Assembly: GCA_023247895.1 (NCBI GenBank)
Contig: JAHFFP010000004.1
Span: forward strand, 1-35,421
DNA: 35,421 bases
Source of the DNA: Candidatus Omnitrophota bacterium
Lineage (GTDB): Bacteria; Omnitrophota; Gorgyraeia; Gygaellales; UBA12090
Direction: 5' to 3'
Under the pieces are notes generated by a model, which was given only the letters and a program-made list of their open reading frames with translations, was not told the DNA's origin and did not search any database. Below are positions 15,356 to 19,971 of the stretch, in pieces. Position numbers and translations under genes: made by a program. The first letter of the stretch is position 1. Each line of letters opens with the position of its first letter.

Positions 15356-16244
15356 CGTTCTTTCTCATAGAAAGCCACACACGCACAAAGGAGATTATGG
15401 CCATATTTTTGTCTTAGCCGGCTCAAGAGGATTAAGCGGCGCGGCTATCCTTTGCGCAGATAGCGCAATGCGCACAGGCGCAGGATTAGTTACTTTAGGG
15501 ATTCCTGAAAGCCTGTATCCGATTGTTGCAAGGAGAGTTTTCTTAGAGGTAATGGCTAAACCTTTGCCGGAAACAAAGGAGCAAGCCTTACATCAGAGTG
15601 CGTATAAGAAAATCTTTGATTTTGCGCAAAAAACAGATGTCTTAGCTATAGGCCCGGGATTATCCCGAAATCATTCAACCCAAAGGTTAATCCTTAAAAT
15701 TATATCTGCAATAGATAAACCTATGGTGATAGATGCCGATGGCCTAAATGCACTTGTAGGTCATTTGAATATTTTACGCACTACGCACTACGCACGGCGC
15801 ATGACGATATTAACTCCTCACCTGGGTGAATTTAGCCGTTTGATAGGGAAACCTGTTATAGAGGTAGAAAAAAACAGAGAAATACTTGCAAAAAAGTTTT
15901 CCTCTGATTATAATATTATCCTTGTTTTAAAAGGCCATAAGACGGTGGTTGTTTCTCCCGGTAAAAAAGTATATATAAATACCACGGGTAATCCCGGAAT
16001 GGCAACCGCAGGTTCGGGTGACGTTTTGACCGGGATGATAGCAGCGCTCTTGGCCCAAGGCTTACATGGATTTGAGGCAGCGAAATTAGGCGTGTATCTG
16101 CATGGTTTAGCCGGAGATTTAGCCGCTAGGGAAAAGACTCAAGCGGGCATGATTGCCTCTGACATAATAGAAAAGATACCCCAAGCGATTAAGCGAATTG
16201 ATTTTTGCCGGCGTAGCTCAGTTGGTAGAGCAATTGTTTTGTAA
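15342..16244 (+). CDS. nnrD: ADP-dependent NAD(P)HX dehydratase (YjeF C-terminal domain only)
   Basis: HKGDYG, GAGLV, IGPGL, IDADGLN, LTPHLGEF, MATAGSGDVL; no epimerase domain; start uncertain. Confidence 0.9.
   Translation: MAKSSVLSHRKPHTHKGDYGHIFVLAGSRGLSGAAILCADSAMRTGAGLVTLGIPESLYPIVARRVFLEVMAKPLPETKEQALHQSAYKKIFDFAQKTDVLAIGPGLSRNHSTQRLILKIISAIDKPMVIDADGLNALVGHLNILRTTHYARRMTILTPHLGEFSRLIGKPVIEVEKNREILAKKFSSDYNIILVLKGHKTVVVSPGKKVYINTTGNPGMATAGSGDVLTGMIAALLAQGLHGFEAAKLGVYLHGLAGDLAAREKTQAGMIASDIIEKIPQAIKRIDFCRRSSVGRAIVL
15886..15914 (+). promoter_or_regulatory. Putative internal sigma70 promoter in nnrD driving the tRNA-Thr/ORF/tRNA-Tyr unit
   Basis: TTGCAA-17 nt-TATAAT. Confidence 0.45.
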
Positions 16245-16279
16245 ACAATGGGTCGGGGGTTCGATTCCCTTCGCCGGCT
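16207..16279 (+). tRNA. tRNA-Thr (TGT)
   Basis: GCCGGCG/CGCCGGC acceptor stem; ATTGT-TTTGTAA-ACAAT anticodon arm; GTTCGATTC T-loop. Confidence 0.93.
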
Positions 16280-16294
16280 TTAAAATTTATTAAA

Positions 16295-16915
16295 ATGCAA
16301 AGATTACAACAGAGTATTTACTCAGCACCGTTAGATTTTACTGAGGTAAAGGCTTTATATTGGGATAAAGAATATACCATGCAGGAAATCGCAAACAAAT
16401 TTAACATTTCTTTATGGGCGCTTTACACTTTTATGAAAAAATACAAAATTGAGCGCAGGAATTTTTCTCAAGCAAACTATGTTGTTTCTAATAGGTTAAA
16501 GCCGCAATTTAAAATAAAACAAGAACTTTCATCTCTAGATGAAAAGTTAAAAGTCGCAGGAATTATGCTTTATTGGGCAGAAGGTACATTAAATAGAAAC
16601 ACGGTAGATTTTGTCAATAGCAACCCTCGTATGATAAAGGTATTCCTAAGGTTTTTAAGAGAAATTTGTGGAGTTAGTGAGAAAAGGCTGCGTTTGTATC
16701 TTTATGTGTATTCCTATCATAATGTAAGAACTATAATGGAATATTGGCATAAAGTAACAGCTATTCCCGTTAACCAATTCACAAAGCCATATGTGAGGAA
16801 AGGAAGTTTGAATAAAACGGAAAGAAAATTAGTTTACGGATTGGTGCATATTAGATATAATGATAAACGATTGTTACAAATAATTAAGGATTGGATTGAG
16901 GAATATATAAAATAG
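16295..16915 (+). CDS. HTH + single-motif LAGLIDADG-like homing-endonuclease-like protein
   Basis: N-terminal HTH (LYWDKEYTMQEIANKFNIS), LAGLIDADG-like helix VAGIMLYWAEG, then VDFVNSNPRMIKVFLRFL; AT-rich; sits between two tRNAs. Confidence 0.7.
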   Translation: MQRLQQSIYSAPLDFTEVKALYWDKEYTMQEIANKFNISLWALYTFMKKYKIERRNFSQANYVVSNRLKPQFKIKQELSSLDEKLKVAGIMLYWAEGTLNRNTVDFVNSNPRMIKVFLRFLREICGVSEKRLRLYLYVYSYHNVRTIMEYWHKVTAIPVNQFTKPYVRKGSLNKTERKLVYGLVHIRYNDKRLLQIIKDWIEEYIK

Positions 16916-16922
16916 TATATAT

Positions 16923-17252
16923 GGGCAGGTACCCAAGCGGCCAAAGGGGACAGACTGTGTAAACGCAGCGCCGGGGAGTAATCTTCGGTGTAAAAGCTGG
17001 TGAATTCAGGGAACCCCTTAGAGTAATATCTTAAGGGCAATCCTGAGCCAAGCCGTCAAAGTTGTATGACTGGAAGGTGCAGAGACTAAGCGCCAGCCGT
17101 CCCGGTTAAAAGGATGATGAGATAGTCCAAGCCTCAAGGTAACTTGAGGGCAGTCGCCACAAAGCGTTGGCGATTGTCCGCCACTAATTCTTTGGTGGAC
17201 ACTTGAAATCTGTTGCACCTGTGCTTCAGAGGTTCGAATCCTCTCCTGCCCA
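16923..17252 (+). tRNA. tRNA-Tyr (GTA), intron-containing; exons 16923-16958 and 17206-17252
   Basis: Spliced 83-nt cloverleaf: GGGCAGG/CCTGCCC-A, ACAGA-CT GT^A AA-TCTGT, long variable arm, AGAGG-TTCGAAT-CCTCT. Confidence 0.92.
16959..17205 (+). ncRNA. Group I self-splicing intron (IC3-like), 247 nt, no internal ORF
   Basis: Exon ends in U and intron ends in G; P1 CTGT/GCAG with U.G at the splice site; P3 GCTGG/CCAGC; P GAATTCAGGGAA; Q AATCCTGAGC; R GCAGAGACTA; S GAGATAGTCC (P7 GACTA/TAGTC); GTAA tetraloops on P2 and P9. Confidence 0.92.
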
Positions 17253-17259
17253 TTCTTCT

Positions 17260-17310
17260 TTAATTAGGGACAGACACTAATTAAATTAATTAGTGTCTGT
17301 CCCTAATTAA
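17260..17310. repeat. Perfect 25-bp-arm palindrome between convergent tRNA-Tyr and thpR; possible bidirectional terminator or REP-like element
   Basis: TTAATTAGGGACAGACACTAATTAA-A-TTAATTAGTGTCTGTCCCTAATTAA. Confidence 0.8.
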
Positions 17311-17864
17311 TTTGTTAAACCTATTTCGCTTAGTTTTTCGTAGATGGGGCCATGGGGGGTGAGGGTGCTTTTGAAGAGGGTGATTGATTTTACTTCTTGC
17401 GGTAGTGGGGAAAATTGAGCTTTGCTTAGTATTTGAGAGAAGGATTTCTTATCCTTAATATATTTTACCCTTCCTATGGTAAGATGGGATGAGAACTTTC
17501 TTGTCTCTTTTGGGAATTTCAATTTGACCAAAGTATCTTCAATAGAGGCAGCTAATTCGTGTAATCCTTCCTTCCCTTTTTCAATACCTACCCAGATAAC
17601 TCGCGGCGATTGTATAGTGGGGAAGCCTCCTATATTTTTGAGCTCCATCATAAATGGCTTAAAAATCCTTGAGACTTCTTTGAGGGATTGAATTATTCTG
17701 GGGATTTTTTGTTCTTCAACTTCACCTAAGAATTTTAAGGTCAAGTGAATATTCTCAGGCTCAACCCACTTTGCGTCTGCCGGAGCAGTTTTGAGTTCTG
17801 CTTGGAGTTTGGAGAGGGTTTCTTGAATTTCTTTGGTTATTTCAATAGCGATAAAAGCCCTCAT
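17307..17864 (-). CDS. thpR: RNA 2',3'-cyclic phosphodiesterase (2H family)
   Basis: MRAFIAI, HLTLKFLG, PRVIWVG, HLTIGR. Confidence 0.93.
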   Translation of the reverse strand: MRAFIAIEITKEIQETLSKLQAELKTAPADAKWVEPENIHLTLKFLGEVEEQKIPRIIQSLKEVSRIFKPFMMELKNIGGFPTIQSPRVIWVGIEKGKEGLHELAASIEDTLVKLKFPKETRKFSSHLTIGRVKYIKDKKSFSQILSKAQFSPLPQEVKSITLFKSTLTPHGPIYEKLSEIGLTN

Positions 17865-18328
17865 CGTAACGCTTCTAAAAGCATTTTAATTGCCTTATCA
17901 GTAGCTTTTCTTTTTACCTGCAGGCGGCTGCCTCTGAAAAGTGATTTTTTAACCAATACCTTCTTTTTTGAAGAAACAGCGATAAACACGGTTCCTGCCG
18001 GTTTAGTTTTAGTTCCGCCGTGTGGGCCTGCGATTCCGGTTATCCCTACGCTTATTGAGGCTTGGGCTATTTTTCGGATATTTAGCGCCATACGTTTTAC
18101 CACTTCTTCAGAAACAGCGCCATGCGTAACGATTATTTTCTTGGGAATTTTAAGGATTCTGGTTTTTGAATCGTTAGAATAGGTGACTATTCCTAAAAGA
18201 AATGCGTGAGAGCTTCCGGAGATATTGGTAATACGGTTTGAAAGTAGGCCTCCGGTGCAGGATTCGGCAATGGCAAGGGTAAGCCTTTTCTGAATGAGCT
18301 TATTTAGGAGAGTAACCTCTTTTAACAT
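17861..18328 (-). CDS. cinA: CinA C-terminal domain protein / NMN deamidase (PncC)
   Basis: AESCTGG, SGSS, YSN, HGAVS, GITGIAGP; ATG 18328 chosen from domain length and promoter position. Confidence 0.88.
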   Translation of the reverse strand: MLKEVTLLNKLIQKRLTLAIAESCTGGLLSNRITNISGSSHAFLLGIVTYSNDSKTRILKIPKKIIVTHGAVSEEVVKRMALNIRKIAQASISVGITGIAGPHGGTKTKPAGTVFIAVSSKKKVLVKKSLFRGSRLQVKRKATDKAIKMLLEALR

Positions 18329-18334
18329 AGAGAT

Positions 18335-18384
18335 ATTATAAACTAATACAAAAGCCTTGACAACCTTAAATTTAGTGATAAAAT
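18335..18384. promoter_or_regulatory. Overlapping divergent sigma70 promoters (rib operon on +, cinA on -)
   Basis: + strand: TTGACA 18357-62, 16 nt, TGaTAAAAT 18376-84. - strand: TTGTCA 18363-58, 17 nt, TATAAT 18340-35. Confidence 0.65.
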
Positions 18385-18390
18385 ACACCT

Positions 18391-18639
18391 AATCTTCGGG
18401 GCAGGGTGAAATTCCCGACCGGCGGTTGCGCTAAAAGCGCACACCAAACCATCAGATCGGTTTGGGTGTAGCGCAGAAGCGCACACCGGCGTTTCCAATA
18501 ACGCCGGGTGTAAAGTCCGCGAGTCTTGCGCGAAAGCGCGGACATGAACCGGTGAAAATCCGGTACCGATAGTTTGCGCTAAAGGCGCACACCAAACCAT
18601 CTGATTGGTTTGGGCCGAAAGTCTAGAGGGGAGAAGATT
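18391..18639 (+). promoter_or_regulatory. FMN (RFN) riboswitch with large insertions in L3 and L6
   Basis: AATCTTCGGGGCAGGGTGAAATTCCCGACCGGCGGT..AAAGTCCGCGA..CCGGTGAAAATCCGGTACCGATAGT..AAAGTCTAGAGGGGAGAAGATT, upstream of ribBA. Confidence 0.93.
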
Positions 18640-18721
18640 AAGAACGCGGATGGCGCGGATTTATAAAGAAAGTATCCTGCGCAGATTACGCGGATAAAGT
18701 AAAAAACTAAGTATATGTATG

Positions 18722-18750
18722 CCCCGGGATAAAACTCGGGGTTTTTGTTT
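18722..18750 (+). terminator. Intrinsic terminator of the riboswitch expression platform
   Basis: CCCCGGG-ATAAAA-CTCGGGG followed by TTTTTGTTT, just before ribBA. Confidence 0.7.
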
Positions 18751-18753
18751 GCC

Positions 18754-19971
18754 ATGTTTAATACCATTGAAGAAATAATTAAAGATATAGAATCCGGCAA
18801 GATGGTTATTGTTATTGATGATGAAAGCCGAGAAAATGAGGGTGACTTGGTAATGGCTGCATCCGGTGCCACCCAAGAAAAAATAAACTTTATGGCTAAG
18901 TTTGGCCGGGGGCTTGTTTGTGTGCCGATGACCCATGAACGGCTTGAGGTGTTAGGGTTGCATTTGATGATTAATTTTCTACCGCATGAGGCCCCCGGAG
19001 GCTATGAGGACAAGTTTCAGACTGCGTGGCGTATTTCTGTGGACGCGCGCAACGGCATAACTACGGGAATCTCTGCCGGCGACAGGGCGCATACTATTAA
19101 AGTTTTAATTGATGAAAAAAGCAAGCCCCAGGATTTAATTCGGCCAGGGCATATCTTTCCTTTAGCGGCAAAAGAAGGCGGCGTTTTGGTAAGGGCAGGC
19201 CATACCGAGGCTGCGGTGGATTTGGCGCGCCTTGCCGGGATGTATCCTGCGGGGGTGATTTGCGAGATTATGAATGATGACGGCACCATGGCACGCACCC
19301 CTGAGCTAAAGCAATTTGCTAAAACCCATAGCTTAAAGATTTGTACTATTGCCTCGTTAATAGAATATAGGCGTAGAAAAGAGCTCTTGGTAAAAAAGAT
19401 AGAAGAGACAAGGCTGCCAACAGCTTTTGGCGAATTTACCTTGTCTCTTTATCAATCTATGATTGACCAGTCCGACCATTTAGCCTTGGTTATGGGAGAT
19501 ATTAAAAAGGGTGAGCCGACTTTAGTGAGAGTGCATTCGTCTTGTTTAACCGGCGATATCTTTTCTTCTTTACGCTGCGACTGCGGTGAGCAGTTAGAAA
19601 GGGCATTGCAGCTGATTCAGTCTGAAGGAAAAGGGGTGCTTATTTATATGAATCAGGAAGGCCGGGGCATAGGACTGGTAAATAAAATCCATGCCTATGC
19701 TTTGCAGGATAAGGGAATGGATACTGTTGAGGCAAACGAGGCATTGGGGTTTCCCGCGGATTTACGCGATTATGGAATCGGCGCGCAGATTCTGGCTGAT
19801 TTAGGCATAAAAAAGATTCGGCTTCTTACCAATAATCCCCGTAAGATTATTGGCTTGGAAGGGTATGGTTTAGAGGTCGTAGAGAGAGTGGAGATACAGG
19901 TTAAGCCTACAAAGGTTAACAAGAAATATCTTAAGGCCAAGAAAGAAAAATTGGGGCATCTCTTGGCGTAA
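18754..19971 (+). CDS. ribBA: Bifunctional DHBP synthase / GTP cyclohydrolase II
   Basis: [49 protein letters not shown]. Confidence 0.97.

Follow-up and report, generated by a model that had tools for sequence, protein, structure and literature searches.

RESULTS

The split tRNA-Tyr gene

This study concerns a tRNA-Tyr(GUA) gene of Candidatus Omnitrophota bacterium whose anticodon is divided by a 247-nt group I intron, together with a gene of 206 amino acids (aa) that lies immediately upstream. Both are located in a stretch of 35,421 nt (assembly GCA_023247895.1, contig JAHFFP010000004.1, positions 1 to 35,421), which is referred to here in its entirety as the window. The tRNA gene, its intron and the 206-aa gene are all encoded on the + strand.

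Exon 1 (16923–16958) contributes the 5′ acceptor strand, the D arm, the 5′ strand of the anticodon stem (ACAGA) and the loop nucleotides C-U-G34-U35, and shares 92–100% identity with the 5′ half of the uninterrupted tRNA-Tyr genes of related genomes. The intron (16959–17205) ends in G, and its assignment is based on an Rfam match, pair counts and alignments. Exon 2 (17206–17252) contributes A36, the remainder of the loop, the 3′ strand of the anticodon stem (UCUGU), a long variable arm, the T arm and the 3′ acceptor strand; it was delimited by ARAGORN with introns allowed, by reading of the sequence and by identity to the 3′ halves of the relatives' genes. The mature tRNA, as read, has a G1-C72 pair, a discriminator A and a long variable arm, and its CCA is not encoded. 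With introns allowed, ARAGORN reports tRNA-Tyr(gta) of 85 bases by its own count, a 247-nt intron and the junction 'actgt-Intron-aaatc'. The anticodon is thereby split GU^A at position 35/36, as the preliminary description of this DNA had proposed, and moving the junction by one base in either direction loses GUA.

The Rfam group I model RF00028 (Intron_gpI) matches 16863–17149 with 99.5 bits (E 8.3e-25; gathering score 50). The model sets P1 upstream of the true P1 but aligns the P3–P9 core correctly, and the match is the only one to a group I intron in the 720-kb genome. ARAGORN with introns allowed also reports a 'tRNA-Ile(aat)' with a 279-nt intron elsewhere in the assembly (G000 contig C9, 13401–13769, − strand); because there is no Rfam group I match at that place, it is treated as a probable false call. 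Under default settings ARAGORN calls three tRNAs in the window, none of them Tyr, and the Rfam tRNA model likewise finds three tRNAs and does not report the split gene. The earlier expectation that default finders would miss the gene is therefore borne out.

The genome is a metagenome-assembled genome (MAG) of 28 contigs and 720 kb, estimated to be 65.7% complete, with 19 tRNA genes by default ARAGORN and 19 to 21 across searches. Neither ARAGORN nor BLAST with the exons found a second tRNA-Tyr gene in this 65.7%-complete assembly.

Structure and covariation of the intron

The intron folds into a compact group I structure. In P1 (16955–16968), the exon sequence CUGU and the first G of the intron are paired with an internal guide, CGCAG, which places a U16958·G16965 wobble at the 5′ splice site. 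P2 (16969–16977/16982–16990) is capped by a GUAA loop, and is followed by P3 (16996–17002/17091–17097), P4 (17006–17011/17041–17046), P5 (17015–17019/17033–17037), and P6 and P6a (within 17047–17078). P7 consists of GACUA/UAGUC plus a G-C pair (17082 and 17084–17088 paired with 17123–17128) with A17083 bulged out. P8 (17098–17102/17112–17116) and P9 (17132–17138/17143–17149), the latter also with a GUAA loop, complete the core, and the 3′ tail CACUUG (17200–17205) carries ωG at 17205. All of the group I hallmarks named in the preliminary description, that is, the P7 strands, the GNRA loops, the splice-site wobble and the terminal G, are thus present. No P5abc extension can be read from the structure, and the listing of open reading frames (ORFs) contains no plausible ORF within the intron.

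Support for this fold comes from an alignment of 27 introns (A2), comprising the window's intron and 26 others picked as short enough for fewer than 400 columns. Helices P1–P9, including the P3/P7 pseudoknot, were drawn on the window's sequence and the pairs were then counted in the alignment. Standard pairs occupy 95.9% of 1482 cells, against 33.5–48.2% when the 3′ partners are slid by one to three columns, a comparison that is favoured by having drawn the structure from the window's own sequence. Compensatory changes are free of that bias: both-sided changes occur in 32 of 55 pairs and 205 cells, and the observed measures were reached by none of 500 shuffles. Covariation is heavy in P2, P5, P8 and P9. 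Four pairs of P1 are invariant in 27/27 introns, and the splice-site U·G and ωG are each present in all 27, while the fifth P1 pair, between the first intron base and the guide, covaries (GC 11, AU 9, CG 2, GU 1, UA 1). The six pairs and bulged A of P7 never vary, and P7 therefore offers no covariation evidence of its own. Taken as a whole, the P3–P9 core with its P3/P7 pseudoknot is supported by covariation.

These data also bear on whether assembly or binning could have joined two tRNA halves around unrelated sequence. Such errors are conceivable for a MAG of 28 contigs, but the covariation over 27 copies supports a single folded RNA, dozens of independent assemblies share the architecture (see below), and Logan contigs of DNA run X1 bridge both exon–intron junctions and the extra hairpins described in the next section (16251–16948, 16929–16972, 16943–17138 and 17109–17252). 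Because of these contigs the split arrangement is not peculiar to one assembly, with the qualification that run X1 is probably the source sample and hence not independent of the assembly. We regard an artefact as having a negligible probability.

A two-hairpin insertion after P9

Between P9 and the 3′ tail lies a lineage-specific insertion of two hairpins (17153–17199), with a length of 47 or 49 nt depending on how a CA dinucleotide at its edge is assigned. The preliminary description had counted these as additional P9.1 and P9.2 hairpins of the intron. The two hairpins do exist, but they do not belong to the intron family, being missing from 26 of 26 other aligned introns, in which P9 is followed by a few bases and then by the 3′ tail (mostly CACUUG). 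Without the insertion the intron measures ~198 nt, and the introns of relatives are 181–290 nt. The segment 17131–17205 folds at −34.8 kcal/mol (z −5.4), with the insertion forming two compact hairpins.

The genome contains no further copy of the insertion, the best other match being 16 nt. The first hairpin (bases 17152–17173) is identical at 22 of 22 positions to five sites on three contigs of a related genome, G039, and the G039 site examined (L140 419–589, contig G039:C10) is a tandem 57-nt two-hairpin repeat. The insertion is also covered by a Logan contig of run X1, which differs from the window by a single G>A change at position 17164. In our view, the extra hairpins derive from a small repeat module inserted at the periphery, where the intron can accommodate it, and are not a feature of the intron family; the hairpin repeat shared with G039 looks like a small module resembling repetitive extragenic palindromes or miniature inverted-repeat transposable elements (REP/MITE-like), able to land inside a ribozyme. 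A second Omnitrophota tRNA-Tyr intron (L040) has a private insertion of ~33 nt that directly follows the 5′ strand of P7 (A2 columns 191–223), which is another sign that small tRNA-Tyr introns tolerate short insertions.

Distribution of the intron

Among 60 relatives from the same family and order, nine carry an intron at the tRNA-Tyr site (G001, G003, G005, G008, G034, G039, G042, G044 and G045), with called lengths of 195–282 nt. The gene of G044 was miscalled as Phe by ARAGORN and was placed by its junction in the alignment. The closest of the nine is 80% identical over the first 230 of 330 query bases, which cover exon 1 and most of the intron. At eleven further loci, ARAGORN shows tRNA-Tyr to be uninterrupted within the same Thr-Tyr-Gly cluster. 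Most relatives carry an intronless tRNA-Tyr gene, and the presence of the intron is patchy at a single site.

A wider view was obtained from an even set of 401 genomes of the phylum, in which the intron core was sought by BLAST and the matching places were then read individually. The core was matched in 37 of the 401. A tRNA-Tyr intron is present in 25, one of which is cut by a contig end and another of which was found only through its neighbouring gene. Related introns occupy other tRNA genes. Eight genomes have one in tRNA-Asn(GUU), which is likewise split at 35/36 behind CUGU (L127–L129 and L131–L135, in G257, G410, G262, G050, G310, G277, G391 and G345), seven have one in tRNA-Thr(UGU or CGU) (L118, L122–L126 and L130), and one has one in tRNA-Arg(UCG) (L120). 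Some genomes of the sample carry two of these tRNA introns. The tRNA-Thr and tRNA-Arg introns are 188–620 nt long, with approximate boundaries taken from ARAGORN, and the longest (541–620 nt) may hold ORFs. Because ARAGORN misnames some of these genes, identities were re-read from exons and junctions; some split tRNA-Tyr genes had been called Ser(tga) or Phe(gaa), and Asp(gtc) had been assigned to two tRNA-Asn genes.

In four loci labelled Patescibacteria (L060, L063, L083 and L092), the intron occupies precisely this tRNA-Tyr position but is more divergent. The mention in the preliminary description of insertions at position 35/36 reported in Patescibacteria tRNAs fits these loci.

In eight of eight intron-bearing relatives examined, of which five are 94–95% complete, the BLAST matches to the tRNA-Tyr exons are confined to the split gene. 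Since the split gene is the only tRNA-Tyr match in these genomes, the intron would have to be removed for tRNA-Tyr to be made, and we consider this comparison of gene content the best available argument for intron removal in vivo.

The same comparison bears on a different scenario, in which the intron is real but splicing has been lost in the window's copy, the insertion having disabled it and turned the gene into a pseudogene, with a second tRNA-Tyr gene residing in the unassembled third of the genome. The scenario draws on the 65.7% completeness and 19 to 21 tRNA genes of the assembly, and on an insertion that no other aligned copy shares. However, the core helices, the U·G wobble and ωG of the window's intron are all intact, the insertion is peripheral (after P9, in two compact hairpins), and the eight relatives have no second tRNA-Tyr-like sequence. 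We therefore consider a loss of splicing unlikely.

RNA data are neutral for or against splicing, as the RNA contigs contained no spliced product attributable to this gene. A 390-nt contig from RNA run X4 has an exon–exon joint that skips 16958–17206, with exons differing by two letters each. It was rejected as a spliced product of this gene; because its flanks are unlike those of the locus, the joint is ascribed to an intronless gene or transcript of another organism. RNA run X21, which shares its sample with the DNA run that best contains the locus, covers exon-like parts only.

The upstream 206-aa gene

The free-standing 206-aa gene (16295–16915, from the ORF listing) fills the spacer between tRNA-Thr and tRNA-Tyr and ends 7 nt before exon 1. 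In many homologues the annotated C-terminal tail is a translation of tRNA-Tyr exon 1 and the first bases of the intron, and hence the gene abuts the tRNA tightly. The protein has at least 457 clusters of homologues, all unnamed or 'hypothetical', with names mostly from Omnitrophota. Many more paralogues, of 28–45% identity, are scattered in Omnitrophota genomes. One of 30% identity (L114 1305–1856, contig G418:C78) immediately precedes tRNA-Thr(GGU), at a distance of 1 kb from the gene copy next to tRNA-Tyr.

Sequence profiles say little about the protein. Pfam gives a weak N-terminal helix-turn-helix (HTH) match and scattered weak matches across the family; no LAGLIDADG family matches the window's protein or is among the 25 best-represented families listed for 20 members. 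NCBIfam has no endonuclease match to the protein, and the PDB has no sequence match to it. An AlphaFold (AF2) model has a mean predicted local distance difference test score (pLDDT) of 78, and a Foldseek search of the model against the PDB returned nothing at E ≤0.001.

The predicted fold is nevertheless suggestive. In a VIA-align comparison with 48,161 chains, a tool whose own caution line is at Z 8, residues 70–206 match LAGLIDADG domains best, the highest being the intein endonuclease 7qsu (Z 7.2, 87 residues, root mean square deviation 2.8), followed by WhiA (5.9), I-DmoI (5.5), E-DreI (5.2), I-Vdi141I (4.9), I-Tsp061I (4.8), I-CeuI (4.2) and I-MsoI (4.0). Residues 9–59 match HTH domains. 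The gene would thus encode an HTH at the N-terminus followed by one LAGLIDADG-like domain. The first long helix ends in the motif LYWAEG, which includes E96-G97 and is invariant in 20 of 20 aligned members. When residues 70–206 were modelled in two copies, the score was 0.81 (best control 0.00), a mark that 20 of 30 proteins solved as one-chain pairs attained, as did one of 23 solved as single chains. The homodimer runs agreed in 100% of contacts, with a partner pLDDT of at least 88 and an interface at residues 80–96. The models thus support a homodimer through the LAGLIDADG-like helix, with the proviso that the pass may reflect likeness to solved LAGLIDADG dimers. Judged from these models, the protein is a probable homing endonuclease; by analogy with WhiA, it could also bind DNA without cutting it.

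Linkage of the gene and the intron

The gene has a sporadic distribution, being found at the tRNA-Tyr position in 14 of the 401 phylum genomes. A tRNA-Tyr intron lies directly downstream in 11 of those 14, compared with 14 of the 387 genomes that lack the gene. Kin are not independent in these counts, although the cases are spread over many families. In the other three gene carriers (G174, G179 and G310), the adjoining tRNA-Tyr is intronless. Decayed remnants of the 3′ end of the gene are present just upstream of the split tRNA-Tyr in G001 (40 aa), G005 (18 aa) and G233 (72–74 aa, with a stop codon).

When one genome per species was scanned, the gene turned up in 145 stretches; 80 loci from these were retained and sorted by the downstream feature. 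An intron-bearing tRNA-Tyr follows at 1–35 nt in 31 loci and an intronless tRNA-Tyr at 5–62 nt in 33, mostly labelled Patescibacteria. tRNA-Thr is adjacent in nine loci and lies 85 nt away in one. Five loci run into a contig end with no call, and in the last there is no call, the next called tRNA being tRNA-Gly at 508 nt. All 25 loci whose protein is at least 54% identical to the window's fall among the 31 that bear an intron. Thus members of the gene family adjoin tRNA genes on the 5′ side, whether or not these are split by an intron, and the window's copy belongs to a subclade that accompanies the intron.

This association raises the question of whether the protein assists splicing. Some organellar LAGLIDADG proteins act as maturases, and the LAGLIDADG-like protein might serve as a helper of that kind, instead of or besides being a homing endonuclease; its position 1–35 nt upstream of the split tRNA-Tyr in 31 of 80 loci, including all 25 of the closest homologues, would suit such a role. 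However, 14 of the 25 intron-bearing genomes of the phylum sample have no intact copy of the gene, which makes a maturase role unlikely, and 33 of the 80 gene loci have no adjoining intron. In addition, small tRNA introns of the IC3 type are known as efficient self-splicers. We consider a dependence of splicing on this protein improbable.

Surroundings of the locus

tRNA-Thr(UGU) (16207–16279, + strand; ARAGORN, and 71.5 bits with the Rfam tRNA model) opens a conserved Thr-Tyr(-Gly) tRNA cluster and is the same neighbour in the relatives. Downstream, a terminator scan located a perfect 20-bp inverted repeat forming a terminator-like hairpin (17262–17308, + strand) between tRNA-Tyr and a convergent thpR/ligT-like gene (17307–17864, − strand), which encodes a 2H phosphoesterase of the LigT/ThpR type ('2′-5′ RNA ligase' family; Pfam E 7.6e-37). 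A CinA-domain gene (17861–18388, − strand) converges together with it on the tRNA-Tyr terminator. Synteny breaks after tRNA-Tyr, since the relatives have tRNA-Gly(UCC) there instead. Farther along, a flavin mononucleotide (FMN) riboswitch (18388–18642; Rfam RF00050, 75.7 bits) precedes a ribBA-like ORF (18745–19971). This riboswitch is unusually long, at 255 nt versus 138 positions in the model, two of its loops carrying insertions of 84 and 49 nt.

DISCUSSION

Probable splicing of the tRNA-Tyr intron

The tRNA-Tyr anticodon at this locus is split by a genuine group I intron that is very probably self-splicing, a further case of the known class of bacterial tRNA introns. The intron is real and conserved and almost certainly functional, and from its family membership and intact core we infer that it is catalytic.

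A plausible course of events can be outlined on the basis of known group I chemistry. The Thr-ORF-Tyr cluster would be transcribed, and the intron would fold into P1–P9 with the P3/P7 pseudoknot. Pairing of the exon end CUGU with the internal guide GCAG would position the U16958·G16965 wobble at the 5′ splice site, where a free guanosine bound at P7 would attack after U16958. The terminal G17205 would then replace the guanosine, and the 3′-OH of U16958 would attack after G17205. Ligation would regenerate the loop CUGUAAA between exons kept in contact by the anticodon stem ACAGA/UCUGU, and RNase P, 3′ trimming and CCA addition would complete the tRNA.

Several considerations pull the other way, some against splicing and others against the interpretation of the gene. 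Splicing itself is deduced from the family and the fold, and that fold, having been drawn on the window's sequence, had an advantage in the slid-partner control. No other aligned copy has the 47–49-nt insertion next to the 3′ tail, and it might influence splicing. A genome that is 65.7% complete leaves room for a second, intact tRNA-Tyr gene. With respect to the gene, there is no Pfam or PDB sequence match to LAGLIDADG enzymes and all fold-match Z scores are below 8; for a homing model, the 33 of 80 loci next to an intronless tRNA-Tyr and the at least nine next to tRNA-Thr are adverse.

Possible spread of the intron and the gene

The last of these observations implies that the gene is independent of the intron and does not generally target the intron site. 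Strict collaborative homing as a general rule, in which the endonuclease would recognize the intron insertion site, was set aside for the same reason, as 33 of 80 gene loci adjoin an intronless tRNA-Tyr. The data fit best with a free-standing endonuclease that would home to the 5′ flank of tRNA-Tyr and carry the intron along by co-conversion. Spread would then probably occur by homing at the DNA level. The LAGLIDADG-like gene product would cut loci that lack the gene, repair would copy the gene and co-convert the intron 36 nt away, and the gene could later decay.

A second route of movement may operate between tRNAs. The Tyr and Asn introns share the CUGU target and the GCAG guide, which suggests occasional jumps by reverse splicing into other CUGU anticodon loops, which may account for the related tRNA-Asn intron. 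Such similarities suggest movement of the intron between tRNAs of the G34-U35 family.

Combining these ideas, we tentatively propose, giving the proposal somewhat less than an even chance, that the 206-aa gene and the ORF-less intron constitute a two-part selfish unit in a chromosomal tRNA operon, in which a very divergent, unannotated LAGLIDADG-type endonuclease would cut at or near the 5′ edge of tRNA-Tyr and repair would drag the intron along, the intron having also jumped to tRNA-Asn(GUU). If true, this would explain the joint gain of the two elements and the earlier decay of the gene, and would provide a natural bacterial case of the route that has been proposed to unite free-standing endonucleases with introns.

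Implications

A practical consequence concerns annotation. Standard pipelines will report this genome, and ~6% of the sampled Omnitrophota genomes, as lacking tRNA-Tyr, and completeness estimates and codon-usage inferences will consequently be distorted. For RNA biology, the introns contribute a set of small natural group I ribozymes (181–290 nt) that is well supported and covarying and occupies a non-classical anticodon position; the understanding of how group I introns work is unchanged. The tRNA-Tyr locus of Omnitrophota and Patescibacteria hosts two optional elements of an apparently selfish kind, the intron and an endonuclease-like gene, and their joint occurrence offers a way to study the assembly of mobile introns.

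Comparison with known systems

The preliminary description had taken the classic bacterial tRNA group I introns to be those of Leu(UAA), fMet, Ile(CAU) and Arg(CCU), a list that is now out of date. The earlier intron database indeed held four bacterial tRNA settings only, all IC3, named 'Leu.3Ug' in tRNA-Leu(UAA), 'fMet.2Ug' in tRNA-fMet, 'Ile2.5Ug' in tRNA-Ile(CAU) and 'Arg.5Ug' in tRNA-Arg(CCU), but a survey of 80,413 genomes added 17 and raised the number to 21 (Williams 2020, bioRxiv 10.1101/2020.01.27.920355). In that survey, the most intron-split tRNAs per genome were found in cyanobacteria, followed by metagenomic assemblies from unnamed phyla. Its settings were discovered by the same logic as applies here, namely Rfam Intron_gpI, ARAGORN with introns, and the U(−1)/ωG rule. 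The window's site, which follows that rule, would be 'position 4' in Williams' numbering, that is, 'Tyr.4Ug'. 'Tyr' does not appear in the running text of Williams 2020, whose 17 added settings stand in table and figure images, and 'Tyr.4Ug' had no occurrence in the literature searched. Among the matches listed in that search, no text described a bacterial tRNA-Tyr group I intron, and no title pointed to anything related to a group I intron in Omnitrophota. Neither 'Tyr' nor 'anticodon' was found in the accessible portion of the text of a 2025 group I intron database paper (PMC11835236). The parts available of two further papers contain relevant general statements: that tRNAs of the Candidate Phyla Radiation (CPR) carry group I introns (PMC8172020), and that such introns cause missing tRNA calls by a program not designed for them (the tRNAscan-SE 2.0 paper).

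Several properties are common to the window's intron and the classical IC3 tRNA introns. It is a small, ORF-less group I ribozyme situated in an anticodon loop and flanked by the anticodon stem, it has U before the 5′ splice site in a U·G wobble and a final G, and GNRA loops cap its P2 and P9. In addition, positions 17035–17051, which comprise the 3′ strands of P5 and P4 and the 5′ strand of P6, form a 17-mer identical to a primer site in the plant trnL(UAA) intron that is used for metabarcoding, and this identity ties the intron core to the classical tRNA-Leu intron family. The 17-mer occurs in 81 papers, and the matches listed, as far as their text was available, deal mostly with the plant trnL(UAA) intron or with metabarcoding of plant DNA. 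A possible placement in the IC3 type has indirect support from the 17-nt trnL identity, the GNRA-capped P2 and P9, and the lack of P5abc. Unlike the classical four, the host tRNA is Tyr(GUA), the position is 35/36 and the phylum is Omnitrophota.

As a separate matter, the plant trnL metabarcoding primer could in principle prime on such bacterial tRNA introns in environmental DNA; the comparison covered a single primer site (17035–17051).

The 206-aa protein is comparable to single-motif LAGLIDADG enzymes, such as the homodimers I-CreI and I-MsoI, and to I-DmoI, intein domains and WhiA, with respect to the predicted fold of residues 70–206 (Z 7.2 to 4.0 over 76–87 residues). An invariant Glu-Gly ends the first helix, and the predicted homodimer is symmetric and formed through that helix. 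Unlike those enzymes, the protein has an added N-terminal HTH, no sequence-profile match and no Z as high as 8.

The SegB endonuclease of T4 sits in a phage tRNA cluster. The closest parallels to the present arrangement are the collaborative (trans) and intronless forms of homing carried out by free-standing homing endonucleases, as described in the available portion of a review (Hausner et al. 2014, Mob DNA 5:8, PMC3984707). In accordance with both, close relatives may have or lack the gene and the intron, the two co-occur far more often than expected, and decayed gene remnants lie beside surviving introns. The setting differs from the collaborative homing reviewed there in being a bacterial chromosomal tRNA operon rather than a phage protein gene, and the gene is also found beside intronless tRNA-Tyr and tRNA-Thr genes. 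Because of these intronless tRNA-Tyr and tRNA-Thr neighbours, intronless homing to the 5′ flank of the tRNA is a likelier mode for the putative endonuclease than targeting of the site of intron insertion.

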